DNA of 64,000 nucleotides from Microgenomates group bacterium Gr01-1014_5 (GTDB lineage Bacteria; Patescibacteriota; Microgenomatia; UBA8517; UBA10165), in NCBI GenBank assembly GCA_007376395.1, contig VMGE01000006.1, positions 2,812 to 66,811 on the forward strand, given 5' to 3'. Within the stretch, counting starts at the first letter, position 1, and every line of letters begins with the position of its first letter. The translations under genes were made by a program, and so were the position numbers. The notes under the pieces were generated by a model that saw only the letters and a program-made list of their open reading frames with translations, did no database searches and had not been told where the DNA came from. Positions 1 to 63,247 of the stretch are shown here, piece after piece.

Positions 1-470
1 TAGGTATTAACATTTCCTCCTTTGGCTGGCGCCGAAATGACCACGCGCTTGGCTCCTGCTTTAGCGTGTTTTTTGGCTCCTTCCTCGTCGGTAAAAACAC
101 CTGTTGCCTCAATGACGATTTCGACACCGAGTTTTTTCCAGGGAAGTTTCTCTGGATCGCGTTGTGCTAAAACTAAAGTTGTTTTGCCGCCTGCTCCGAT
201 CGAATCGGAGTTAACCATAATTTTTCCGATCTCAGGGGTTTCGTCAGTCGCTTCGTTCGCACTCCTGATTTTCTCAAAAGTTATTTCTCTGGGGAATTTT
301 CTGTAAGTTGTATCATATTTGACCAAATGTGCCCAACCTTCGACATCCATTGAACCTGATGTGTTCACAGCGACAATATCTAGTTTGTCTGAATAATTAA
401 GAAGCGCGATACGGAACGCGAGGCGTCCGATTCTTCCAAAACCGTTGATAGCAACACGGACAGACATAGT
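1..470 (-). CDS. gap: glyceraldehyde-3-phosphate dehydrogenase, N-terminal part (gene continues beyond window start)
   Basis: The reverse complement from 470 translates MSVRVAINGFGRIGRLAFRIALLN...SGSMDVEGWAHLVKYDTTYRKF, the classic GAPDH NAD-binding N-terminus. The +22..306 ORF in the track is the shadow frame. Confidence 0.85.
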
Positions 471-506
471 AAGATAAAGATACAGAAACAGACACAGATA
501 AGCAAC

Positions 507-860
507 CTATTTTCTCATTAATCCCGTTAACATCCTACAAATTTCTTCAGCTAAAACATATATTTTCTGTTTATATTTTTCATCTACATTAAGCAAGTTT
601 CGCTTACTTAATATAATTAATATACTCATAGACTCGTAAACAGAACCCTTAGATATATTATAGAAATTAGATGAATCTCTAACTGTTTTTCTCCCGCTTC
701 CTTCAGCTATATTGCTCGGAATTGATAGCGCACATCGCCTTAATTGTTCTCCAAATGAAAACTGGTATTTCTGAGGTAAACCATCTGCGATTTCTATAAG
801 TAGGTCTGCTAACTCTACAGCCTTCTCCCAAACTTTGAGCCTTTGAAATTGAAATGACAT
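507..860 (-). CDS. four-helix-bundle protein (23S rRNA intervening-sequence protein family, TIGR02436-like)
   Basis: 117 aa with the family motif ...ALSIPSNIAEGSGR... Two paralogs lie at 3224..3598 and 61652..62032. Confidence 0.6.
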   Translation of the reverse strand: MSFQFQRLKVWEKAVELADLLIEIADGLPQKYQFSFGEQLRRCALSIPSNIAEGSGRKTVRDSSNFYNISKGSVYESMSILIILSKRNLLNVDEKYKQKIYVLAEEICRMLTGLMRK

Positions 861-877
861 TTTCCGTATCTGTATCT

Positions 878-1933
878 CTATCTGTTTCTGAGTGCTAGGA
901 GTCCTGGCAGATCACCATATGCTAGATATTCCAACATTGCTCCACCGCCAGTTGAGATAAAATCTATTTTATCAGATATTCCGAGTTTGTGGAGCGCGTG
1001 GATTGTATCTCCGCCTCCCGCAATCTTGTAAGCCTTAGAATTGACCACTGCTTTCGCAACTATTTCTGTTCCTTCCCAGCGATTATTATCAATATCCCCC
1101 ATTGGCCCATTCCAAACAATTGTTTTTGCAGTTTTTATTACTTCGGCAAAATTGCGTGCCGAGTCAGGAGTAATATCCCGACCACTGCGGTTGACGTGGG
1201 CGGCGACAATACACATTTTTCCGTCGGTGTCGCGGCAATATGATTTAATTTTGTGCGGTAATACTCCACCAACCAAAACCGTGTCTGCGTGGCGAAATAG
1301 CTTGTCTACAAACACAACCTTGTCGTACTTTCCCCCACCGATAATCATAACAACCGGACGTTTAGGGAATTCTCCGCCTGAGGCGGATCCGCCTATGGAG
1401 GGTAAAACTTTTTCTAAATGCTCTACCTCTTCTGTTAATCTCTTGCCTGCCGCATGGGGTAAAAGTTTTGGTAATCCCACAACAGAAGCTGTTTCTCGGT
1501 GGCAAACTCCAAACGCATCGTTAACATAGATGTCGCCGTGTTCTGCTAAATATGCTGCATATTCCATCATTTCTTCTTTATCCCGAGCCGTGTCGAGGGA
1601 CTCGCCCGCATCAAAGCGCAAATTCTCCATCATATACATTTCTAAATTCTTAAATTTCTCCCGGCCTAAATAATCACGCATGAGTTTTTCTAAATGTTTT
1701 GCCACTGGTTCAAGACTGAGGCTTTCTACTACTTTACCGCCTGGCCTGCCGCGGTGGCCTAAAACAACAATTCTGCCCGAGCCTTGTTCAAGAAGATAAT
1801 CAATTGTAGGGATTGCGGCTTTGAGGCGATAATCTTCGGCAACTTTTCCGTCTTCGAGGGCGACGTCTAAATCGAGTCTGAGAAGTATTCTTTTTCCTTT
1901 TATTTTAAGATCTGTGAGTTTTGGCAGCTTCAC
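878..1933 (-). CDS. pgk: phosphoglycerate kinase
   Basis: 351 aa with PGK hallmarks: RLDLDV, YVNDAFGVCHRETAS, GGGDT, STGGGAMLE. Confidence 0.9.
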   Translation of the reverse strand: MKLPKLTDLKIKGKRILLRLDLDVALEDGKVAEDYRLKAAIPTIDYLLEQGSGRIVVLGHRGRPGGKVVESLSLEPVAKHLEKLMRDYLGREKFKNLEMYMMENLRFDAGESLDTARDKEEMMEYAAYLAEHGDIYVNDAFGVCHRETASVVGLPKLLPHAAGKRLTEEVEHLEKVLPSIGGSASGGEFPKRPVVMIIGGGKYDKVVFVDKLFRHADTVLVGGVLPHKIKSYCRDTDGKMCIVAAHVNRSGRDITPDSARNFAEVIKTAKTIVWNGPMGDIDNNRWEGTEIVAKAVVNSKAYKIAGGGDTIHALHKLGISDKIDFISTGGGAMLEYLAYGDLPGLLALRNR

Positions 1934-3184: not shown

Positions 3185-3223
3185 GATTAAGGATAAGTAG
3201 TCAGTTGTGGGTAGTGAGAAATA

Positions 3224-3598
3224 TCACTTCCAACTTTCTCCTAAACGATAAAGTTGTTTGCCCGCAATTTCATACTCCTCTACTAGATTACCACAAATTG
3301 ACACATTTATGAGCTTGGGGTAGAGATCGCGAATGAGTAAAAGGTGAACAACAGATTCATTGCATTCCCCCACCGCGTCGCGAAGATACTTACGCCATTC
3401 TTTCGCAGACTGCCTTCTGGCATACCCCTCGGCTATTAAAGCTGGTGGTGATTTGGTTGAACGATTGAGTTGATCTCTTAATCCGTACTTTTCTTGTACG
3501 GGCAATTTAGGGAGTATTTCTTTGTGAACAGCAAGAGCCAGCCTGTAAAGACGCTTGTAAACGTCAAGATCTCTAAAACTTACAATTTTTAGACCCAT
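3224..3598 (-). CDS. four-helix-bundle protein (TIGR02436-like)
   Basis: 124 aa with the motif ...PALIAEGYARRQ...; paralog of 507..860. Confidence 0.6.
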   Translation of the reverse strand: MGLKIVSFRDLDVYKRLYRLALAVHKEILPKLPVQEKYGLRDQLNRSTKSPPALIAEGYARRQSAKEWRKYLRDAVGECNESVVHLLLIRDLYPKLINVSICGNLVEEYEIAGKQLYRLGESWK

Positions 3599-3634
3599 TT
3601 CTCACTACTTACTACCCACTACTCACAACCTTGG

Positions 3635-4896: not shown

Positions 4897-5010
4897 AAAT
4901 CACCGCATATTTACCGCGTTATTTCCGAAACGTACAAATTTAATTATAAATTTTACGTTTCTGGGACGTTTAATTTCAGGAAAATTATTACGTCCCGGAC
5001 TGTCTAAACT

Positions 5011-8148: not shown

Positions 8149-8418
8149 TCCCCTGTAGCTCAGCGGTAGAGCAGGAAACTGTGTTAGCAGCTCTCGATAG
8201 AAATGTCGGGATGAAAAGTGGGTGAATTCAGGGAACGGTCGCCTGAGGCGACTAATCCTGAGCCAAGTCCTGAGAGAAATCGAAGGAAAGGTGCAGAGAC
8301 TAGGTGATTACACCCTCGAGCGCCCACCACCTAAATCCTGAGTAAAACCGAAGGACAAGGTGATGAGATAGTCCAAAAAGTAATTTCAAGGTCGTAGGTT
8401 CGAATCCTACCGGGGGAG
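8149..8418 (+). tRNA. tRNA-Asn(GUU) interrupted by a group I intron. Exons are 8149..8182 and 8381..8418, and the intron lies after anticodon position 35.
   Basis: The spliced sequence UCCCCUGUAGCUCAGCGGUAGAGCAGGAAACUGU|UAAUUUCAAGGUCGUAGGUUCGAAUCCUACCGGGGGAG folds as a cloverleaf. It closely matches bacterial tRNA-Asn, including discriminator G. Confidence 0.7.
8183..8380 (+). ncRNA. group I self-splicing intron, subgroup IC3-like (198 nt)
   Basis: The 5' exon ends in U, forming a U.G pair with the internal guide GCAG at 8187-8190, and the intron ends in G. The internal GGUGCAGAGACUAG...CCCACCUAA and GAGCCAAG strings match conserved P7/P3 regions of the Azoarcus tRNA-Ile and cyanobacterial tRNA IC3 introns. 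Confidence 0.65.
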
Positions 8419-19438: not shown

Positions 19439-20000
19439 TAAGAGGCCATCTTCAACCACGTCCCTAGATTAGTTTCCCAACCACGCCACCTTAAGGTAAC
19501 AGTTCGGAATACAGGTTTTTGTAATTAGTAGTATACCATGATTCATCTGGGTACACAAATATAATCCGAAACCTTATGCTCAAGAGATATAAAAAGTTAT
19601 AGTTGACAAGTCTAATCTGAGAGATTATTATCAATTTCGATGTTAAATATTACTGTTAGTCGCGACGGGGATATCCATACGGTGAAAATAAACAAGTTTG
19701 TTACTTACGTAATAAACCGTTAATTAAGTTCTTTTTCCTCATATAGATCTTTCCCGAATTTAAACTGCTACTAACTTATTGTGGGTGTCTCTTATCAGCT
19801 GAAGGAGATTAAATCCAGTAATGGTAAGCGTCGGTAACGCGAGGTTGCGTAAAACATTATGGTATGTACCGAGAAACACAGACCATATAACAACCAGCCC
19901 ACAATTAACATCACTTAACGTCTTTCTACTGCAACTTCATGCTCGAATACTACTCCACTCTCGTCAATCGCTAGCCAAAATCCTTCAAAGGGCGAAGATT

Positions 20001-26132: not shown

Positions 26133-26302
26133 GTGTCCAGTTCTCAAGCATTTGTTGTTTGAGAATTTTTTTGTCTTTATAGCCTCTATCTGAGGCTAGA
26201 CAGGGTTGTGCGCAACGTAATAATTTCTCTGAAATTAAACGTTGCTGAAACGTAGAAATTTCAATTTCGTACGTTTCGCCGCCCCGCTAAGCGGGGTAAA
26301 CC

Positions 26303-30820: not shown

Positions 30821-32695
30821 ATGGACAAAATACCAAAAACACTTTTAAGATCAAAATTAAGGCCGTTCTTTGCCTTGGTTGCCGTCTGTGTAATCACTTT
30901 CATCTCTTTCCATCTCCTCTACTGGAATAGGGCTTATCCTGGAGTTAAAATCGTGGGCGTTGACGTCTCCGGAAAAACAGCTGCCGGGATAGAAGAAATA
31001 ACAAACAATCTCGCAAAGCCGGAAAAAATAGTCCTCAGCTCTAAAGATGAAGCTCCACGGGCAGGCGCCCGCGGTATCTTCTCCCCACTGCTTCGTCAGG
31101 AGCGGAATCCCTCCGAAGCAGAAATTTCTTCGCATTCATCCACGGAATTGGACACATGGTTTTCTGCGAAGGGGGATAAAAAATACGAATATACCGGTGA
31201 AGAAATTGAGCTGGAATACAGAACAAACAAAACAGCTCTCCGCGCCGTAGAAATTGGCCGCAAAGGAGACTTGGGTAAAACAACCCGCGACAAATGGAAA
31301 GCTCTAACCCGAGGAACCAACATCCCTCTTTCTATTTCGCTCGACAGCAAGGCTCTAGATTTAATCATTGAAAAGGTCTCTCAGGACGCACACGTTCCTT
31401 CTGTTGAGCCCGCGGTCAATATTCAAGGGAAAAGAATTGTCGTTAACGCCGGAAAAAGCGGGCAAGAGGTCAAAAAAGAAGAATTAAGAGAAAAAATAAC
31501 CCGTTCCTTGGCTTTTCTTGAAACTGAAGAAATAACAATTCCTGTCACAATAACCAATCCGCAGCTTTCTGAAATTGACGTAAAAATAATCAAAGAAAGA
31601 GCAACAAAATTATTGGGCAAACAAATCCAAATTGCTTTTGAAAAAGAGATTTTCAACTACAAAGATCTGGAGCTGGTTACCATCCTTGGAACAGAACAAT
31701 CTTTTATCAATGCCGAAAAAACCAAAACCCTTGTTTCTGATTTAGCAGAGGGTGTAAACCGCGAACCTCAAGACGCCAGGTTTGAATTCGAAAGCGGGAA
31801 AGTTAAAGAATTTACACCAGCAAAAGACGGTATTAAGGTTCAGGAAGAAGAAACTGTAAAGCAGGTAGCCGAAGCGCTCAAAAAACTTGTTGAGACCGAG
31901 GAAAAAACAGCTCTCGTTCAACTCGCGGTCGACGCAACCCGCCCAGAAACTCAAAATCAAGACGTCAATAATCTGGGAATAAACGAGCTTGTCGGGCGCG
32001 GAGAGTCAATTTACCGCGGATCGATTCCCGGCCGTATTCACAACCTCTCCCTTGCGGCCAGCCGTTTAAACGGGATTCTTATCAAGCCCGGTGAAGAATT
32101 TTCCTTTAATAGAGCCGTCGGCGATATTTCGCAGGGAACCGGCTATCAGCAGGCATATGTGATTAAAGAAGGAAAAACGATTCTTGATGACGGGGGCGGG
32201 GTGTGTCAAACATCTACCACTTTTTTTAGAGCCGCCCTAAACGCAGGTCTGCCAATTACAGAAAGGCACCAGCACTCATACCGCGTCTCTTATTACGAGA
32301 ACGGCTCAAAGCCGGGGTATGACGCGGCCATTTATTTACCCAATATTGACTTGCGTATTAAAAACGACACTCCGGCGCACATTTTGATACAAACCATAAA
32401 CGACAGACAAAATGCCAAACTTATTTTTGAGTTTTACGGAACCAACGACGGAAGACGCGCAGAAACCTTAAACTACCGCCAGTGGGATCCGCGGCCTGCT
32501 CCGCCCGATCTCTATCAAGACGACCCTACCCTGCCCACAGGAACAACAAAACAGATCGAAAAGTCGGTTCCTGGATTAAAAACTGCATTTGATTACAAAG
32601 TGACGCGGGGTGGTGAAACTATTTTCGAAAAGACTTTTTATTCCAACTTCCGCCCTTGGCAAGCGGTATACCTGCGCGGAACAGCCGAACAGTAA
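30821..32695 (+). CDS. VanW-family protein with N-terminal membrane anchor
   Basis: The C-terminal VanW signature GYQQAYVIKEGKTILDDGGGVCQTSTTFFRAALNAGLPITERHQHS. Confidence 0.7.
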   Translation: MDKIPKTLLRSKLRPFFALVAVCVITFISFHLLYWNRAYPGVKIVGVDVSGKTAAGIEEITNNLAKPEKIVLSSKDEAPRAGARGIFSPLLRQERNPSEAEISSHSSTELDTWFSAKGDKKYEYTGEEIELEYRTNKTALRAVEIGRKGDLGKTTRDKWKALTRGTNIPLSISLDSKALDLIIEKVSQDAHVPSVEPAVNIQGKRIVVNAGKSGQEVKKEELREKITRSLAFLETEEITIPVTITNPQLSEIDVKIIKERATKLLGKQIQIAFEKEIFNYKDLELVTILGTEQSFINAEKTKTLVSDLAEGVNREPQDARFEFESGKVKEFTPAKDGIKVQEEETVKQVAEALKKLVETEEKTALVQLAVDATRPETQNQDVNNLGINELVGRGESIYRGSIPGRIHNLSLAASRLNGILIKPGEEFSFNRAVGDISQGTGYQQAYVIKEGKTILDDGGGVCQTSTTFFRAALNAGLPITERHQHSYRVSYYENGSKPGYDAAIYLPNIDLRIKNDTPAHILIQTINDRQNAKLIFEFYGTNDGRRAETLNYRQWDPRPAPPDLYQDDPTLPTGTTKQIEKSVPGLKTAFDYKVTRGGETIFEKTFYSNFRPWQAVYLRGTAEQ

Positions 32696-32790
32696 AATTG
32701 ACCTAATTAACCTAAGTACTCTAATTTCTAAATTGGGAATTGGAACTTATTTAGATTAATTAGAATAATTAGAGCAATTAGAAATTCTAT
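32694..32790 (+). repeat. ~95-nt dyad-symmetric intergenic repeat element, copy A (immediately upstream of tsaD)
   Basis: aaaattgacctaattaacctaa...ttagaataattagagcaattagaaattctat. Its reverse complement matches 60392..60489 over nearly its whole length. Confidence 0.7.
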
Positions 32791-33882
32791 ATGGTTATTC
32801 TTGGAATTGAAACTTCCTGTGACGAAACAGCGGCTTCAGTCGTAAAAGACGGAAGAGAAATTTTGTCTCATGTACTGGCAACTTCTGTACAGATGCACAT
32901 AAAAACTGGCGGCATTATTCCCGAAAAGGCTGCGCGTGAACAAGTGAAATCAATAATCCCAGTGATAGAAGAAGCACTTCTCCAGGCTTCAGGGGCTGGA
33001 GGCTGGAGGTTAGAGCCTGGGTCATCGTCTAATCTCCAATCTCTAATCTCTAGTCTCGACTGCATCGCCGTCACCTACGGTCCGGGGCTTATTGGCTCTC
33101 TTTTAGTGGGAGTAGAAACCGCCAAAACTCTTTCGTATCTTTGGAAAAAACCCGTTGTTCCCGTTAATCATCTCACTGCTCATATTTATGCAAACTGGCT
33201 AACCGGTAACCCGACAAACCGGAACCTGGAACCTGAATTGCCTGCTGTTGCACTGGTTGTCTCAGGAGGACATACAGATCTTGTTTACTTAAAAAATCAT
33301 GGTCAGATGGAATATATCGGAGGAACGCGCGACGACGCCGCTGGGGAAGCTTTTGACAAAACAGCCAGACTCTTAGGTCTTCCCTATCCCGGCGGACCAG
33401 CGATAGCCGCTGCTGCATCCCACTACCCACTACCCACTACCCACTACCAATCTTTCTTACCTCGGCCGATGATTTCCAATAATAATTTTGACTTTAGCTT
33501 CTCTGGCTTAAAAACAGCCGTGCTTCGCGAAGTATCTAACTTCCAACATCCATCTTCCAACCTCCCGCTTCCAACATCAGCTTTCGCATACGAAATTCAG
33601 GAAGCAATTACCGATGTTTTGGTCGAAAAATCTTTACGCGCGGTAAAGCAATATAAGGCAAAAACTTTTCTTTTAGCGGGCGGAGTCGCGGCAAACTCTC
33701 GCTTGCGCGAAAAGTTTGAATTAAGAATTAAGAATAATAAATTAGGGATAGATTTCAGGGTTCCTCCTCCAGAGCTTTGCACAGACAACGCCAGCCCTAT
33801 TGCCGCTTGTGCTGAATTTAACTATCACCCCCTCTCTTGGCAACAAATATCTGCCAATCCAAACTTGAGTATTATGAACTGA
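32791..33882 (+). CDS. tsaD: tRNA N6-adenosine threonylcarbamoyltransferase TsaD (Kae1/Gcp)
   Basis: MVILGIETSCDETAASVV..., HLxAH and GGVAAN motifs. It carries in-frame low-complexity inserts encoded by heptanucleotide tandem repeats. Confidence 0.9.
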   Translation: MVILGIETSCDETAASVVKDGREILSHVLATSVQMHIKTGGIIPEKAAREQVKSIIPVIEEALLQASGAGGWRLEPGSSSNLQSLISSLDCIAVTYGPGLIGSLLVGVETAKTLSYLWKKPVVPVNHLTAHIYANWLTGNPTNRNLEPELPAVALVVSGGHTDLVYLKNHGQMEYIGGTRDDAAGEAFDKTARLLGLPYPGGPAIAAAASHYPLPTTHYQSFLPRPMISNNNFDFSFSGLKTAVLREVSNFQHPSSNLPLPTSAFAYEIQEAITDVLVEKSLRAVKQYKAKTFLLAGGVAANSRLREKFELRIKNNKLGIDFRVPPPELCTDNASPIAACAEFNYHPLSWQQISANPNLSIMN

Positions 33883-41550: not shown

Positions 41551-43689
41551 ATGGACAAAACATATAATCACAAACTACACGAAAAAGATATTTACACCTT
41601 TTGGGAAAAGGGTGGATATTTCCCCCCTTCGCCAAAGGCTACGGAGGGGCAAGGCAAGCCTTTTACTATTATTATGCCTCCTCCAAACGCCAACGACCCT
41701 TTACACATTGGACACGCCCGCTTTGTCGCTATAGAAGACACATTAATCCGCTACCACAGAATGAAAGGAGAGCCAACGCTCTGGCTCCCTGGAGCAGACC
41801 ATGCCGGAATCGAAACCCAATTTGTATTTGAGAAGCGCCTTAAAGAACAAGGCAAGAGCCGTTTTGATTTTGACCGCGACACACTTTTCAAAATGATTTG
41901 GGATTATGTGCAGGAAAACAAAGGTGTTATGGAAAATCAGCTCAGGATTTTAGGCGCCTCGTGCGACTGGACGCGCAATAAATTTACTCTCGACCCAGAG
42001 ATACAAAAAATTGTCTACAAAACTTTCAAGGCTCTTTCTGACGACGGACTCCTCTACCGTGGTGATCGCCTGGTTAATTACTGCACAGTCTGCGGCACGG
42101 GCTACTCCGAACTTGAGGTTGACAGAATAGAAAGAACCGACCCGCTTTATTACGTGCGTTACAAAAAAATAGACAGTGCGGATTATGTTGTTGTTGCCAC
42201 AACCCGTCCTGAGCCGATTTTTGCCGATACTCATTTGGCGGTTAATCCCAAAGATAAAAAGAACAAAGACTTGATAGGTACTAAAGTTCTAAACCCTTTA
42301 ACAAAACAGGAAATGGAAATTATAGGCGACGAGTTTGTTGATCCGGAATTTGGCACAGGTATTGTAAAACTGACGCCAGCCCACGACTTCAACGATTTTC
42401 AAGTTGCCGAGAAGCACAACTTGCCAATCATCCGCGCTATTAATCCTGACGGAAAAATTTCTCAGGCGGGAGGAAAATACGCCGGTCTTTACGTTAAAAA
42501 AGCGCGAGCGGCAATCGTTCACGATTTGCAAGAAAACGGTCTGATAGAAAAAATTGACGACAAATACCAACACGTGGTGGGAATTTGCTACCGCTGTAAA
42601 ACGAATATTGAGCCCATGACACGGGAGCAATGGTTTGTCAAAATCAGACCCTTAGCCGATAAAGCTCTACAGGCGGTCAAAAAAGGTGAGGTTAAATTCG
42701 CCGCTGAACGTTTTGAAAAAATTGCCATCCATTGGCTTAAGAATTTACGCGACTGGAATATCTCCCGCCAAATTGTTTGGGGAATGGCGATTCCTGCATG
42801 GCAGTGCAAAGAATGTAACAAGTGGATAATTACCGATAGCGAGGCGCCCATGGAATGCTCCTGCGGCTCACGAAATCTCGTCCAAGACCCCGACACCTTT
42901 GATACCTGGTTCTCCTCGGGTCAATGGCCATTCGCGACCTTACAGACCACAGAACCCGGTGACTTTGAATACTTTTACCCAACTTCTGTTATGAATACAG
43001 GATACGACATTGTCCCTTTCTGGGTTTTACGAATGATAATGTTGGGACTGTACACGACCGGCAACGTGCCATTTAAAAATGTACTAGTGCATGGACTGGT
43101 CCGCGACGCCCAAGGGCAAAAGATTTCCAAATCAAAAGGCAATGTTATTAACCCAATAGAAATGGCGGATAAATACGGCACAGATGCGTTAAGGATGGGT
43201 ATTCTGTGGGGCGCCTTAGTCGAAAGCGACATTGCACTATCCGAAAACAACATCCGCGGGCAAAGGAATTTTGGCAACAAGATTTGGAACATAGCGCGCT
43301 TCGTTCTTTCAACACCTCTAGTCTCTAACCTCCAGTCTCCAACCTCTAACGAAGATGATGAGCGGATTCTCAAAGAACTTAATGAAAGTATTAAAAAGAT
43401 AACAGATGCGCTTGACCAGTATCGTTTAAGCGAGGCGGCAGAAGAGTTGTATGAATTTGTTTGGAAAAAGTTTGCAGACGTTTATCTTGAAAAAACTAAA
43501 GACCGCCGGGGTGATGCACAACCTACCCTACTTTTTGTTTTACAAGAATCTTTAAAACTTGCTCATCCATTTATGCCTTTTATTACTGAGGCAATCTGGA
43601 AGATTGCCAATAAACAATACTCAGTAAACAGTCCTCAGGGATTTTTCAAAGAAGAAGCTTTGATTACAGCTCGCTGGCCAGCTAGTTGA
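41551..43689 (+). CDS. valS: valyl-tRNA synthetase (short form lacking the C-terminal coiled coil)
   Basis: HIGH motif PLHIGHARF, KMSKS motif KISKSKGN, and an editing domain. It carries an in-frame heptamer-repeat insert at 43311..43350. Confidence 0.9.
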   Translation: MDKTYNHKLHEKDIYTFWEKGGYFPPSPKATEGQGKPFTIIMPPPNANDPLHIGHARFVAIEDTLIRYHRMKGEPTLWLPGADHAGIETQFVFEKRLKEQGKSRFDFDRDTLFKMIWDYVQENKGVMENQLRILGASCDWTRNKFTLDPEIQKIVYKTFKALSDDGLLYRGDRLVNYCTVCGTGYSELEVDRIERTDPLYYVRYKKIDSADYVVVATTRPEPIFADTHLAVNPKDKKNKDLIGTKVLNPLTKQEMEIIGDEFVDPEFGTGIVKLTPAHDFNDFQVAEKHNLPIIRAINPDGKISQAGGKYAGLYVKKARAAIVHDLQENGLIEKIDDKYQHVVGICYRCKTNIEPMTREQWFVKIRPLADKALQAVKKGEVKFAAERFEKIAIHWLKNLRDWNISRQIVWGMAIPAWQCKECNKWIITDSEAPMECSCGSRNLVQDPDTFDTWFSSGQWPFATLQTTEPGDFEYFYPTSVMNTGYDIVPFWVLRMIMLGLYTTGNVPFKNVLVHGLVRDAQGQKISKSKGNVINPIEMADKYGTDALRMGILWGALVESDIALSENNIRGQRNFGNKIWNIARFVLSTPLVSNLQSPTSNEDDERILKELNESIKKITDALDQYRLSEAAEELYEFVWKKFADVYLEKTKDRRGDAQPTLLFVLQESLKLAHPFMPFITEAIWKIANKQYSVNSPQGFFKEEALITARWPAS

Positions 43690-55431: not shown

Positions 55432-56120
55432 TAATCTTGTTGTCCAAAAATATTATTACGGGCAAATTGATAATGTAAAGGCCACTTGTTTGGCATTTCG
55501 AAAATGTTAGTTGCGCCTAAAAACTTAAATTCGCGTCTGATAATGTAAAGACCTATTGTTTCGGCAAAATCCTCGTCGATAATGTTAATATTGTTTAGAT
55601 ATTTACTTGGGTAAGTAGGAAGGATACCTTCTTTAATTGTAGCTCCTGAGTTTGCAAAACCAGAAAAAGCAACAGCTCCGTCTACTTTTGCATATACGTG
55701 AGCAGACTCGTGAGAAAGCGTGTAAGACAGCTGGTGAATGCCCGCAAATGCTTTGTCGAACAAATAAATATCCTTTCCGATGACGTGCCCGCTTTCTCCT
55801 TCCTTAGCGACAGTGCCTCTAAACACCCTAATTGCCCCTTGGTTGCAAAGAGTTGCTGTGTATGTTTTGTATTGAGCTATTCTAGCGGCCGCGGCTGCTA
55901 CCTCGGCTTTATCTTCAGGCGTCCACCCCTTACCTCCTTCCGCAAAAGTGAAGCACCCTATCGGAGGGTTTCCGATAATTACCGTAGCTGTTTTCGAAGT
56001 AGACTCTCCTGAAGGGCCGTCTTCGACGTCAGCCGTAACCGTAACTTTGTGGCAATGTGTGATTTCCCGTGCTGGGTTCTGGGGGGTTGTTTTTGCCATA
56101 CACAGAGAATTTTTCAGCAA
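55431..56120 (-). CDS. hypothetical protein with HExxH motif (putative metallopeptidase-like)
   Basis: Contains LSHESAHVYAK. An alternative start MAKTTPQ lies at 56099. Confidence 0.4.
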   Translation of the reverse strand: MLKNSLCMAKTTPQNPAREITHCHKVTVTADVEDGPSGESTSKTATVIIGNPPIGCFTFAEGGKGWTPEDKAEVAAAAARIAQYKTYTATLCNQGAIRVFRGTVAKEGESGHVIGKDIYLFDKAFAGIHQLSYTLSHESAHVYAKVDGAVAFSGFANSGATIKEGILPTYPSKYLNNINIIDEDFAETIGLYIIRREFKFLGATNIFEMPNKWPLHYQFARNNIFGQQD

Positions 56121-59693: not shown

Positions 59694-60389
59694 TTAAACA
59701 TTGACCGGAACCTCCTTGCCGTTTTCTAACTTACCCTGAGCTTGTCGAATGGGTCGTCCGTCAGTCCGGTAGATATTATGGAAAAGCCGTGCTACCTCCT
59801 CGGTGGTGAGCTGTTGGACTTTAATTCCTAGACGCCCGGACTGGCGGATAACGTGGTCGCGTCTTGGAAAAAGCACGGTTTTGGCCTTTTTTAAGACATA
59901 GTCTTTGGGGTAAGGAACAGATCGTTGGCGGCGGGTTAGCGTATTAACCATTCCTGTTGTGGAAATTCCAAGTTCAAAAGGGGAGAAGGGAATAATAATA
60001 AAAAAATCTTTTTCTAAAACATTTCTCTTTTTGACAATTTGCGCAACAAAGGTTTGGTATGAGCCAATCAAAACTTTAAGTTTAGCGTTTGTCTGCTTGT
60101 CTGCCTCTTCTTTTAAGTAGTTAAGGTAGTTGGTGACATCTTTTTTTTGCGAACGCACTAAAATTTGGATTGCAAAGGAAAGCGAGTTTAAAAAAGCCGA
60201 ATACGCGTAAGTAATTGCTTCTTGTTCTTTTTCGGATAATAAAGAAAAGTTTAAGGCCGAAGCGCGCATAATGATTGCCGCTCCGCCTTCTTTTGTCAGC
60301 AAGATGTCGTCTGTAATGTCAGCAATTAAAATATGCTGTTGGGTGGTAGAGCTGATAGGCACAACCTTTGCTGGTTTAAGATTTAGCAT
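59694..60389 (-). CDS. virB4: VirB4-family N-terminal domain fragment (separated from the ATPase portion by a frame change)
   Basis: 231 aa resembling the VirB4 N-terminal region; its stop at 59694-59696 is in a different frame from the downstream ATPase ORF. Confidence 0.6.
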   Translation of the reverse strand: MLNLKPAKVVPISSTTQQHILIADITDDILLTKEGGAAIIMRASALNFSLLSEKEQEAITYAYSAFLNSLSFAIQILVRSQKKDVTNYLNYLKEEADKQTNAKLKVLIGSYQTFVAQIVKKRNVLEKDFFIIIPFSPFELGISTTGMVNTLTRRQRSVPYPKDYVLKKAKTVLFPRRDHVIRQSGRLGIKVQQLTTEEVARLFHNIYRTDGRPIRQAQGKLENGKEVPVNV

Positions 60390-60391
60390 TT

Positions 60392-60489
60392 TTCAAATTT
60401 CTAATTATTCTAATTGCTCTAATTTCTAAATAAATCCCAATTGTCCAATTTTTGGGTCAATTAGAAATTAGGTTAATTAGGTCAATTTT
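60392..60489 (-). repeat. ~95-nt dyad-symmetric intergenic repeat element, copy B (immediately upstream of the virB4 N-terminal fragment)
   Basis: Relative to the downstream gene it has the same orientation as copy A: aaaattgacctaattaacctaa...attagagcaattagaataattagaaat. Confidence 0.7.
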
Positions 60490-61589
60490 CATAGTTGTCT
60501 GGCTTTTATCTGTATTGGCGGAATCAGCCTTCCTTCGGCTTGAAATTGTATGGGGTCAAAAGTCAAACCGTCTTTTTCGGTCATGAGTTCGTAGCCGCCG
60601 TTTTTCAAGGGAGTTACGGTCATAAAGTGGCCAACTCTGTTGCTTCTAATTGCGCGGACAGGAGTTTTTGAAACAGAATCAATAATTTCCAAGATTGCGC
60701 CTTCGACGATTTTACCTTCGGCGGTTAAAACTTGTCCGACAATTGTGTTGGGAATTTCAGGAGGAGAAGGAGGCGCGGCCTCTGGACTAAAGACTGCCTG
60801 GGCGACAACCTGTCCGCTGCCTGATTGGTTTGCAAAAACAGGCGAAAGAGGTTGGATTGTTTCCTGTTGGGGCGCTTGCTGATTTTGGACTAGTGCAGAG
60901 TGTCCTACTTTTACAACTTGTTGAACCGGCACGGGCATGGCAGTATCTTCCGGCCGCACTGACCGCATATTTGGCGCGACTTGCTGTGCTATTTTTTGTC
61001 CCTGTACTTCTTGAGTAAGCACCATTCCTTGGGTAAAAGGTTCTGCTTGGCTTTTTACTCCCCCTGACATGGTGTTTTGATTAAAGGTTGTATTTGCACC
61101 CGATGTTGCTTGAGGAATTACGGCAAACATGGCGCTAACCTTTGAGAAAAAGTTTTTCTCTCCTTGTTCAAATTTTTTAACTTCTTCCGACTGGCCTGCC
61201 CCGGTCAGATCAGAGTCTGTTGTTGACAAGGTAATTGGTGTTGTGTCGGAAGAGGTAGATTTAGCAAAGACATCTTCGGCGCTATTTGCGTCCCAGGTGT
61301 AAAGGGTTGGTGAATAAATTGCTTTAACAAAAGCAAGAACCCATTGAGAAAGCGGACGTTCTTCTATTGGTAAAAATGCAAGTGCCGCTCCAAGTAGGCC
61401 AAAGAGTAGTACCAGAGGCCACTTGATAACCCCTGGCAAGGGGGTAGCATAAAAGATGAGTGATACTGTAATACCCCCGGCCAACTGGAAGAATTGCTTG
61501 AGGGTCATGTCTCCGACAAGCTTAAATTCATAGCTAGAAATGTGTTGCGGTACAGGATGCTGCTGCATTGCGACGAAGTCGCAAAACAT
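60489..61589 (-). CDS. PrgI/VirB3-like T4SS membrane protein with long Gln/Ser/Thr-rich C-terminal extension
   Basis: N-terminal HISSYEFKLVGDMTLKQFFQLAGGITVSLIFYA matches the PrgI-family signature; it lies directly upstream of virB4. Confidence 0.5.
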   Translation of the reverse strand: MFCDFVAMQQHPVPQHISSYEFKLVGDMTLKQFFQLAGGITVSLIFYATPLPGVIKWPLVLLFGLLGAALAFLPIEERPLSQWVLAFVKAIYSPTLYTWDANSAEDVFAKSTSSDTTPITLSTTDSDLTGAGQSEEVKKFEQGEKNFFSKVSAMFAVIPQATSGANTTFNQNTMSGGVKSQAEPFTQGMVLTQEVQGQKIAQQVAPNMRSVRPEDTAMPVPVQQVVKVGHSALVQNQQAPQQETIQPLSPVFANQSGSGQVVAQAVFSPEAAPPSPPEIPNTIVGQVLTAEGKIVEGAILEIIDSVSKTPVRAIRSNRVGHFMTVTPLKNGGYELMTEKDGLTFDPIQFQAEGRLIPPIQIKARQL

Positions 61590-61651
61590 ATATCGCTACG
61601 CGATAATTCATAAAGCAAAAAACATAAAAGTTATGCTCTTTGCAATATGTT

Positions 61652-62032
61652 TTATGTTTTACTCTTCTTTACCTCCAATCTTTTCATCATGGTTGTTAAC
61701 AGTTTTATAATTTCGAGGTTTTGTTCTGAAAATTCATCCAACCTTTTTCTGGGAAATAAATTAAGTTCAATTATTATTTCTAGCCAATAGTCAACCTCAA
61801 ATGCCGATCCTCTCGAAATCGAAATAAAACGTCTGTAGTCTTGTGAATAGTATCTACCATACCCTTCTGCTAAATTTGCTCCTTCAGAAGATATTGCTCG
61901 CACAAGCTGGTTGACTAAATATTTCAATATTCCGCGAAGCTCTTTTCCTTTGAAAAAACTTACAACATCTAAAGTGAGTTGCTTGCTTTTTTGATAAGCA
62001 GCGGATTTTTTATATGAGTAGGCAGTCTCCAT
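61652..62032 (-). CDS. four-helix-bundle protein (TIGR02436-like)
   Basis: Contains ...SEGANLAEGYGRYY..., the same family as 507..860 and 3224..3598. Confidence 0.6.
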   Translation of the reverse strand: METAYSYKKSAAYQKSKQLTLDVVSFFKGKELRGILKYLVNQLVRAISSEGANLAEGYGRYYSQDYRRFISISRGSAFEVDYWLEIIIELNLFPRKRLDEFSEQNLEIIKLLTTMMKRLEVKKSKT

Positions 62033-62143
62033 ATTTATGCTTTCTGTTTTGTGTTTTTTGTTCTAATCTAGCTACCGCTAGATTAGCATATGAAATCAGG
62101 ATTTCAAGGGAGCCTATTTTCACAAGCGAAGAATTAAAGACTT

Positions 62144-63112
62144 TTACCTTAAACCGAGGTCGTATTCAAGGTTGCACTTCAAGCAAACATTGCACCCGCC
62201 ATCTTCTGCTCCCCAGACATATTTTTCAAAGCCGCAAGAGGCGCATGCCCGCCGCGTTTTAAATTTATCGATGTTCTGCAAAGTGGCAACTCCGGGAAAA
62301 GTGTCTGATGTCATAAGATTAAGCATTTCTGAATTTAATATGCCGGGACAGTCGCGGAGCTGGTTTATCAAATGTCCTCGGGCAATTATTTCCTGCTCGA
62401 TTTTTGCTCCTACAAAAACCTGCTCATACAAGGTCGAAGCTGATATTATAGCAGTGTGATTATTGCCAGCTATTTCTCGGCCGTCTTTGAGTGCGGCCAT
62501 TTTTTCTGCAGTTAATTGAGCGATAGTTTTTTTAGTTAAAGTTAAGACTAAATCGTTAAAAGTTTTGCCCTCCGGAAGATTAAATTCAACCGGTCTGTCG
62601 TTAAACTCTTCGTCGTCTAGTGAGTTGGGAGCATCGGCAAACGCTTCGTAAACTCTTACACATTGTGTCGGAGAAAGAGGCAGGCATACAGCAACACTTT
62701 GAACTCGTACAATGCCATTTTCTTCATACTTTCGGCTTACAACTACCCGCGACCATTTATAGAAGCCATCGACCCTTGAACTTATCCAGGCGAGACACTC
62801 AGCGTCGCTAAACGCCGCCCAGGAGACGGTTTCCGTGGTTGCTGTGTTTTCATTCTGATAAACGGGGTGATTTGTGCGGTTGGTATCAGTGAGCCGAACT
62901 AATTCCTCGAGCGTTGTCCAATAAATATTTGGCTTTCTTTGAAATTCAAGAATTACAGAAGCTAAATCTTGAGCGATTACTTCTTGAGATTTTTTCCAGT
63001 TTGCGACCGGTAGCGCTAGTTCTACATTCATAGTTTCCTGCTCGGGATGGTAACTGAAGGTTATTAGTTTTCCGGCTTCTCGTCGCTTCTCTCCTCGAAG
63101 TAAACTCCTCAA
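62144..63112 (-). CDS. hypothetical protein with C-terminal C4 zinc finger
   Basis: Contains CASCGFEKYVWGAEDGGCNVCLKC. The probable start is MNVELAL at 63031. Confidence 0.4.
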   Translation of the reverse strand: MRSLLRGEKRREAGKLITFSYHPEQETMNVELALPVANWKKSQEVIAQDLASVILEFQRKPNIYWTTLEELVRLTDTNRTNHPVYQNENTATTETVSWAAFSDAECLAWISSRVDGFYKWSRVVVSRKYEENGIVRVQSVAVCLPLSPTQCVRVYEAFADAPNSLDDEEFNDRPVEFNLPEGKTFNDLVLTLTKKTIAQLTAEKMAALKDGREIAGNNHTAIISASTLYEQVFVGAKIEQEIIARGHLINQLRDCPGILNSEMLNLMTSDTFPGVATLQNIDKFKTRRACASCGFEKYVWGAEDGGCNVCLKCNLEYDLGLR

Positions 63113-63247
63113 ATTTTTGAAGAATTTATATCGAGGGCTTTAGCCCGAGATACGGTTGCGGCACAGCTCCTGAATTGCACAGGATTCCTTAATCCTCCTT
63201 CGCTTAAAGCTACGGAAGGACGTTGCATAACCTTATTCAGTCAATTT

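Follow-up and report, generated by a model that had tools for sequence, protein, structure and literature searches.

Two gene junctions share a palindromic element

The genome of Microgenomates group bacterium Gr01-1014_5 raises the question of why tsaD and a gene for a TraC-like protein are preceded by nearly the same intergenic sequence of about 95 nt. Both genes lie in a 64,000-nt stretch (GenBank assembly GCA_007376395.1, contig VMGE01000006.1, positions 2,812 to 66,811 of the forward strand), which was analyzed at its full length and is referred to as the window. A first-pass annotation of this DNA had offered three options for the shared sequence, namely, a mobile repeat resembling miniature inverted-repeat transposable elements (MITEs) or repetitive extragenic palindromic (REP) sequences, a shared promoter-operator cassette, and a structured RNA leader. 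Our analysis favors, with a probability of about 0.65, the view that both copies are MITE-like members, devoid of a gene, of a family of palindromic cassettes of the intervening sequence (IVS) type, found in many phyla of the candidate phyla radiation (CPR). The best reading of the pair is selfish insertion at gene junctions, not a shared regulator of tsaD and virB4, as the second gene had been labeled.

Copy 1 (32694..32790, + strand) takes up all of the spacer that separates a VanW-like gene from tsaD, extending from within the TAA stop of the former to the last base before the tsaD ATG at 32791. Copy 2 (60390..60488, - strand) likewise fills the spacer between a PrgI-like and a TraC-like gene, from the stop of the first to the ATG of the second (59694-60389). 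Both are in sense orientation directly before a start codon, as had been annotated; the limits of copy 1 were also correct, and those of copy 2, given as 60392-60489, required a small shift. When copy 1 is aligned with the reverse complement of copy 2, 79.6% of 98 columns are identical (E = 2e-16 against the 64-kb window), which confirms, at roughly 80% identity, the proposed repeat pair of about 95 nt. The opening 22 nt, AAAATTGACCTAATTAACCTAA, are the same in both. No third copy was found within the window, where no other match came near the score of the pair.

Each copy is built from two arms around a center. In copy 1, the 5' arm (32698..32733, +) reads TTGAC-CTAATTAAC-CTAAGTACT-CTAATTTCT-AAAT and consists of tandem 8- to 9-nt units with the core CTAA(T/G)T, followed by the center TGGGAATTGGAACTT (32734..32748, +), the ATTGG-type inner part, and by the 3' arm ATTTAGATT-AATTAGAAT-AATTAGAGC-AATTAGAAATT (32749..32786, +). 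The corresponding arms of copy 2 are TTGACC-TAATTAACC-TAATTTC-TAATTGACCC (60454..60485, -) and ATTTAGA-AATTAGAGC-AATTAGAAT-AATTAGAAATT (60396..60431, -). Units of the type AATTAGNNN are common to both 3' arms, and the order of AGAAT and AGAGC is exchanged between the copies, in agreement with the swap of 9-mer units that had been noticed earlier.

Chance similarity between stretches of AT-rich, low-complexity DNA has a negligible probability as the origin of the pair. The 10-mer AATTAGAAAT is not overrepresented in the window (14 matches versus 12.6 expected), which is the one point in its favor; it is refuted by the full-length alignment (E = 2e-16), by the 22-nt exact block, and by an 18-mer of the element that recurs at 118 or more loci of other genomes, mostly within the same architecture.

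Both copies are predicted to fold, on either strand, into a long AU-rich imperfect hairpin with a stem of about 30 to 35 bp. The minimum free energies (MFEs) of the four folds range from -20.5 to -23.7 kcal/mol (z-scores of -3.3 to -5.1), and for neither copy on either strand did any of 200 dinucleotide shuffles fold as well, so that the folding check proposed in the first pass gave a positive result throughout. Such folding, directly before two start codons, is also what a riboswitch-like or attenuator RNA leader would produce, sensing a ligand or protein and common to tsaD and the type IV secretion system (T4SS) genes. This explanation is hardly credible. The apical structures of copies 1 and 2 differ, no other part of the element varies as much or is lost as easily as the center, no terminator-like feature is present, and the element precedes many unrelated genes. 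In addition, no Rfam family matches at its gathering threshold; with E values of up to 10 admitted, the only matches are plant-miRNA-like hairpins and others, far below the family thresholds. The idea of a structured leader in the riboswitch sense therefore did not hold up.

The element recurs in modular form across CPR genomes

The shared 18-mer TTGACCTAATTAACCTAA was scanned in a genome collection containing one genome per species, and it occurs at at least 118 loci. The number of matches expected by chance is about 17 under a uniform model and up to a few tens under an AT-rich model. This count in other genomes, which had been suggested as a check, means that the pair is not private to the window. 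Among the loci listed, most belong to metagenome-assembled genomes (MAGs) labeled Roizman-, Levy-, Curtiss-, Davies-, Gottesman-, Sacchari-, Doudna-, Falkow-, Berkel-, or Nealsonbacteria; Gammaproteobacteria or Bacteroidota appear as the labels of a few records, here taken as given.

Most of the loci listed show the organization of the window copies, with a 5' array, a center, and a 3' array in one modular hairpin. The 5' array consists of 8- to 9-nt NNN-CTAATT units, in which NNN stands for TTGAC, TTAAC, TTTC, TTATT, TTGCT, or TTGAT; the center has CCAAT/ATTGG-type units; and the 3' array consists of AATTAG-NNN units, usually ending in AATTAGAAATT. A simple detector recovered 91 such hairpins of 53 to about 220 nt in 892 kb. 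Across the family, the mean MFE is -29.5 kcal/mol versus -13.8 kcal/mol for shuffles. The ends of the element are systematically asymmetric, with AAATT(G/A)AC-CTAATT at the 5' end and AATTAG-AAATTT (-AGAAATTT) at the 3' end.

The asymmetry of the ends allows copies to be oriented relative to their neighbors. The ORF-less copies, that is, those without an open reading frame, that lie between co-directional genes are in sense orientation in 24 cases and in antisense orientation in 7 (P = 0.003). The upstream stop codon falls within about 15 nt of the first core (mostly at -4 to +14), and the downstream ATG mostly lies 5 to 30 nt past the last core, at a variable distance. The genes that follow the element are functionally unrelated across loci.

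Small GC-rich palindromes, such as CCTGCCTGCCGGCAGGCAGG, are nested in the CTAATT elements of five loci (L075, L098, L118, L029, and L031). The composite of element and palindrome has been copied whole in WARV01 (L029) and CAZOSY01 (L031/L044).

A scan of viral contigs for the 18-mer returned a single match and no sign of a phage vector. The literature searched, of which coverage was partial and the relevant papers concerned rRNA IVSs only, contained no description of the element or of IVS-type stems at operon junctions.

One family member lies in 23S rRNA and others enclose IVP genes

In a Saccharibacteria MAG (L074), the element forms a 134-nt insertion, in sense orientation, in the apical loop of a 23S rRNA helix, at about positions 165 to 170 of the Rfam large-subunit (LSU) rRNA model. 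The corresponding helix of L057, a related MAG, holds a different insertion. The window copies themselves lie between protein-coding genes and not in 23S rRNA, so the rRNA location is a feature that these two do not share. As a separate observation on L057, two tRNA-like matches (1767-1978) fall inside the reported 23S rRNA span, which measures 4.6 kb versus 2.9 kb for the model.

The family is also linked to genes of the Pfam family PF05635, which encode IVS proteins (IVPs). In Coxiella, an S23p/IVP ORF lies in the loop of the IVS, RNase III sites have been mapped in the stem, and tandem GACAGAT heptamers, variable in number between strains, precede the ORF (PMC4990558). At known IVS sites, CPR rRNA genes have many short insertions of no assigned class, a 23S_rRNA_IVP protein is encoded by some rRNA insertions, and this kind of IVS is excised by RNase III (PMC11270868). 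At eight loci of the present family (L028, L046, L051, L067, L101, L115, L120, and L124), a PF05635 gene is located exactly between the CTAATT and AATTAG arms, at the center of the element where other members hold CCAAT/ATTGG units. The eight IVPs form one subfamily with the motif YDLEERTAKFGE...GANYCEADDAES...KKESRESKHFLRM. The closest solved structure to IVP, 2RLD, is that of an "uncharacterized protein" deposited with five chains.

The association holds in an independent sample of 80 metagenome loci chosen by IVP protein profile alone, 70 of which have both flanks. At least two CTAAT cores upstream and at least two ATTAG cores downstream were found in 44 of these 70 loci, versus 0 and 7 for a reversed-core control. 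Most of the remaining loci that were read carry other mirrored units, for example, GAATGAC, TTCCAAT, or CTTCTAA. The cassettes are co-oriented with their neighbors, the upstream gene being on the same strand in 43 cases and on the opposite strand in 1, and the downstream gene in 40 and 7, respectively, which suggests that IVP cassettes depend on read-through transcription from the host. Descent from such co-oriented cassettes would account for the sense bias of the ORF-less copies. Scans for rRNA motifs returned none in the 80 loci, and the cassettes there thus sit in protein-coding contexts.

Three related cassettes with other unit types occur in the window itself. The first (455..895, - strand) has an IVP gene at 507-860 (PF05635, E = 2e-28) between mirrored ACAGATA-type units, and its flanks form a duplex of -34.7 kcal/mol versus -21.6 kcal/mol for shuffles. 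In the second (3189..3632, -), mirrored GTGAGTA/GTGGGTA heptamers stand on both sides of the IVP gene at 3224-3598 (E = 4.5e-19), the flanks forming a duplex of -34.3 kcal/mol versus -20.5 kcal/mol for shuffles. The third (61590..62090, -) has an IVP gene at 61652-62032 (E = 5e-22) and weakly complementary flanks with AACAUAAAAC-type units. The ACAGATA units around the gene at 507-860 resemble the GACAGAT heptamers of the Coxiella IVS.

The element is gained, lost, and copied at gene junctions

Close relatives show how both junctions of the window have changed. At the VanW|tsaD junction, the genome at locus L125 (TsaD 68% identical) lacks any spacer, with the stop of the VanW-like gene overlapping the start of tsaD; L123 (TsaD 85% identical) has the same ORF-less element; and L124 (TsaD 78% identical) has the left arm, a 121-aa IVP gene, and the right arm. 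At the PrgI|TraC junction, a spacer of 4 nt is found in L128, an IVP cassette with AGTGNNN heptamer arms in L129, and a different AT-rich insert of 122 nt in L127. Among close relatives, both junctions thus exist in empty and gene-bearing states, to which the window adds, in each case, one with the hairpin alone; colonization of the PrgI|TraC junction has happened more than once.

Similarity is higher among the copies of one genome (0.745) than between copies from different genomes (0.639; P = 3e-7). The flanks of within-genome copies are unrelated, and some of these copies are 84 to 100% identical. For the copies in JBAZQX and WARV, the similarity ends at the outer ends of the arms; for those in CAZOSY, it reaches about 85 nt upstream and about 40 nt downstream, the element being part of a larger repeat. 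Terminal inverted repeats are present in the form AAATT(NNN)CTAATT ... AATTAG(NNN)AATTT. With many dispersed copies, likeness within genomes, unrelated flanks, and empty sites at both junctions, it is the MITE/REP-like mobile repeat among the three initial options that the evidence bears out.

A proposed cassette model for the two copies

In the model that we propose, a full cassette has a long imperfect stem, made by a 5' arm of tandem 8- to 9-nt (NNN)CTAATT units and a 3' arm of mirrored AATTAG(NNN) units, with a PF05635 IVP gene of roughly 120 aa in the loop; the short form lacks the gene. Such cassettes occupy precisely the gap from the stop codon of one gene to the start codon of the next, co-directional one, or, in at least one case, a 23S rRNA helix; they are gained and lost at gene junctions and copied to new sites within genomes. 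The window copies would be transcribed as part of the VanW-tsaD and PrgI-TraC operons. By analogy with 23S rRNA IVS stems, RNase III may cut their AU-rich stem; the two cistrons would thereby be separated, and a new 5' end would come to lie a few nucleotides ahead of the downstream start codon.

Insertion would then be nearly harmless, close to neutral, because a near-leaderless 5' end would suit a genome almost without Shine-Dalgarno sites. A Shine-Dalgarno-like motif precedes only 3 of 46 genes (long ORFs in the window), and many starts in the window have a TATAAT-like box about 7 nt upstream, which suggests that leaderless mRNAs are widespread in this genome.

A broader generalization is possible and is put forward tentatively, at clearly less than even odds: PF05635 cassettes and ORF-less hairpins may be one large selfish class that occupies rRNA helices and operon stop/start junctions in CPR bacteria, and probably beyond, and that persists through removal or cutting of the stem by RNase III. 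If this is true, such elements would act as a kind of "intron without ligation", with the expression of host genes unimpaired. In a bolder extension, the unit triplets could be a sequence code read by a cognate IVP pentamer acting as a mobility or maintenance factor. Such a code would fit both the conservation of the arms beyond that of coding DNA, described below, and the correlation of IVP subfamilies with arm unit types.

Constraint on the arms and rival explanations

Several observations weigh against selfish, near-neutral insertion as a complete account of the two copies, one of which is conservation. Between the window and L123, the element at the VanW|tsaD junction has 0 substitutions in 90 aligned nt, next to coding DNA that differs by 11 to 16%; it is more conserved than expected of a neutral relic (the probability of 0 in 90 at a rate of 12.5% is about 6e-6), and the one difference is an indel of 7 nt within the first 3'-arm unit. 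In two other orthologous pairs (L035/L093 and L077/L117), conservation of the arms likewise exceeds that of the coding flanks, and in both pairs the center varies or is deleted, the center being the part most easily lost. Furthermore, the stems are imperfect, and the order of the triplets does not maximize pairing. A tuning of the 3'-arm unit order to the 5' arm was rejected, the observed order being slightly less stable (mean MFE of -29.5 kcal/mol) than permuted orders (-31.6 kcal/mol; P = 1e-5); it is therefore the invariant cores that produce the pairing. The unit sequence itself seems to be what is constrained, which points to a sequence-specific constraint or to homogenization beyond the model; possible sources are recognition by a protein, perhaps by IVP, and homogenization between copies.

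The remaining points on this side concern strand, origin, and processing. The antisense strand folds slightly better than the sense strand in both window copies, and the advantage of the sense strand across the family is only marginal (P = 0.03). The part of the source genome that was examined, the 64-kb window and about 6 kb more, contained no CTAATT-type IVP copy. The boundaries of near-identical copies show no unambiguous target-site duplication: both ends of the element are AATT, which is self-complementary and hence ambiguous as a duplication, and the empty junctions of L125 and L128 have no AATT. No known transposase is associated with the family, the gene-bearing form encoding only the PF05635 four-helix-bundle protein and no transposase domain being seen. 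Processing by RNase III is argued from analogy, and the signature motif of this enzyme is not encoded in the 64-kb window, which says little about the whole genome.

The conservation of sequence beyond pairing, together with the invariant core and fixed 8- to 9-bp period of the units, a unit order that does not maximize hairpin stability, and a TTGACC hexamer at the 5' end, could be taken to mean that the element works as DNA. The 9-bp CTAATT units would then be tandem sites for a regulator or a nucleoid protein that coregulates the downstream genes. We regard such an array as quite improbable. Promoter and terminator scans of both regions gave nothing above shuffle expectation: a single weak promoter-like match lies in copy 1, and the interior of copy 2 has none. 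The ATG follows the last unit at a variable interval of about 5 to 30 nt, the element also occurs inside a 23S rRNA gene and around IVP ORFs, and the genes downstream of it are unrelated in function. As TTGAC is also present in interior units, it is a unit variant and not a positioned -35 box. The shared promoter-operator cassette suggested at first is accordingly not sustained.

The same conservation, the tight placement against start codons, the bias for sense orientation, and a genome that is almost free of Shine-Dalgarno sites, with many apparently leaderless genes, would also agree with a host function acquired by exaptation. Here, the hairpin would be selected as an intercistronic module for mRNA processing, stability, or translation, for instance, by providing a near-leaderless 5' end for tsaD and the TraC-like gene. 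This explanation, which differs from selfish insertion only in who benefits, is unlikely. Close relatives manage without the element at both junctions (the stop/start overlap in L125 and the 4-nt spacer in L128), L127 and L129 have unrelated inserts at the same junction, and the orientation bias is already explained by descent from co-oriented IVP cassettes. We retain selfish insertion of IVS-type cassettes as the preferred reading of both copies.

Comparison with known repeat families

Among known systems, the mode of working proposed here is closest to that of classical IVSs and of transcribed palindromes of the Correia, ERIC, and BOX types. With the classical IVSs of Coxiella, Leptospira, and Salmonella, the family shares a long inverted-repeat stem around a variable loop and tandem short direct repeats of variable number, such as the GACAGAT heptamers of Coxiella (PMC4990558). 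In both, some copies have a PF05635 ORF in the loop and others do not, and the distribution is sporadic, which suggests horizontal spread; in addition, the present family has one member within a 23S rRNA helix. The present family differs in that the window copies and most other members lie between protein-coding genes, in its 8- to 9-nt units with a CTAATT core, and in the occurrence of near-identical units across many CPR phyla. Cleavage by RNase III, demonstrated for classical IVSs, is predicted by analogy for the present element.

The Correia elements of Neisseria, the enterobacterial repetitive intergenic consensus (ERIC) sequences, and the pneumococcal BOX elements and repeat units of pneumococcus (RUP) are imperfect palindromes of 100 to 150 bp that occur in many intergenic copies and are co-transcribed with their neighbors. 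Correia hairpins are cut by RNase III, and BOX elements are modular, with a variable number of an internal unit. However, each of these families is known only from a single genus or family, Correia elements end in defined terminal inverted repeats and come with a TA duplication, and none of these four families has a sequence relationship to the present element. To our knowledge, none of them is associated with a PF05635 gene or found in rRNA.

MITEs resemble the family in being short and non-coding, with inverted ends, dispersed copies, unrelated flanks, presence or absence at orthologous sites, and a longer, gene-bearing partner form. They differ in that the gene-bearing form of the present family encodes a four-helix-bundle protein and not a recognized transposase, and in the lack of a clear target-site duplication. 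REP sequences and bacterial interspersed mosaic elements (BIMEs) are likewise mosaics of short palindromic units between co-directional genes. REPs, however, are GC-rich, 20 to 40 nt long, and characterized by a conserved 5' GTAG and by IS200/IS605-like genes for REP-associated tyrosine transposases (RAYTs), whereas the present element is AU-rich, about 95 nt long, and built from 9-nt units; no link to RAYT genes was seen, and these were not searched for. In cyanobacteria, Elhai et al. reportedly described, in 2008, heptamer arrays of short tandemly repeated repetitive (STRR) sequences and nested small dispersed repeats (SDRs). These are similar in their hairpin-forming arrays of short tandem units and in small GC-rich palindromes nested in other copies, but the taxon and the unit sequences differ. 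We know of no description that links SDRs to PF05635 or to rRNA IVSs.

Implications

Since about 1990, neither a function nor a means of spreading has been established for rRNA IVSs and S23p/IVP proteins (PMC4990558, PMC11270868). What is new here is that the IVS stem architecture, with or without an IVP gene, is abundant at operon junctions of many CPR phyla and that empty, hairpin-only, and gene-bearing states are all visible at one junction among close relatives. Both make the old question tractable through RNase III cleavage, binding of IVP to the arms, and the choice of insertion site. IVP genes have been reported within cas loci (PMC3936711), and the present cassettes may help to explain them. 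In a genome that lacks Shine-Dalgarno sites and leans toward leaderless mRNAs, the hairpins may also shape the expression of internal cistrons.

Neighboring genes and assembly variants

Copy 1 is preceded by a gene for a VanW/PG_binding_4 protein (30821..32695, +), the TAA stop of which overlaps the start of the element, and followed by tsaD (32791..33882, +), as annotated in the first pass. Copy 2 is preceded by a gene for a PrgI-like protein with a weak Pfam match (60489..61589, -). The gene after it (59694..60389, -) is not virB4, as had been supposed, but encodes a separate 231-aa TraC-like N-domain protein (PF26593), with the VirB4-type ATPase gene following it. The homologues of the TraC-like protein all measure about 190 to 245 aa, and a virB4 gene split by insertion was therefore rejected; the 231-aa protein is the product of a normal separate gene.

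ENA contig k139_75408 (L003) matches the window exactly apart from three stretches of ordinary coding sequence, of 85, 58, and 81 nt, that are deleted in the window (at window positions ~59629, ~56341, and ~56046-56050). The 85-nt deletion frameshifts the VirB4-type ATPase gene, which encodes 630 aa in L003. These deletions may be assembly or curation differences or real population variants.

The two copies enclose a 27.7-kb segment with dnaA and dnaN. Logan contig SRR8863434_50299 (27.9 kb), from an independent short-read assembly, ends at 32757 and 60423, that is, inside the two inverted copies and 35 nt 5' of each ATG. This coincidence of the hairpins with the ends of a short-read contig suggests assembly breaks at the repeat, through a drop in coverage or heterogeneity in unit number.

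Other repeats and RNAs in the window

In-frame, hairpin-like repeats of short units occur inside tsaD (32991-33060 and 33418-33455) and inside leuS (43320-43347), resembling in-frame insertions of the Rickettsia palindromic element (RPE) kind. The first, GGCTGGAGG.../TCTAATCTCCAATCTCTAATC, encodes a variable loop of TsaD (aa 63 to 90) that is 18 aa shorter in some homologues, and the leuS stretch is complementary to part of it (32991-33018). The second contains four CACTACC units, the same as in the arms around the IVP gene at 3224-3598. Units of such cassettes are also met within coding regions and may give rise to in-frame variable loops there.

A second repeat family has copies at 4927-5000 (+) and 26208-26280 (-). 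These are about 70 nt long and roughly 80% identical in a 59-nt core, with ACGTTTC/GAAACGT units that are unrelated in sequence to the CTAATT element. A group I intron (8176-8390, +; Rfam, 80 bits) lies in an intergenic-looking stretch, around which ARAGORN found no tRNA. In addition, a DUF3800-IX RNA was identified at 19450-19517 (-; 43.9 bits), and a borderline match to the cobalamin riboswitch lies at 63050-63242 (-), scoring 32.6 bits versus a gathering threshold of 31.5 bits.

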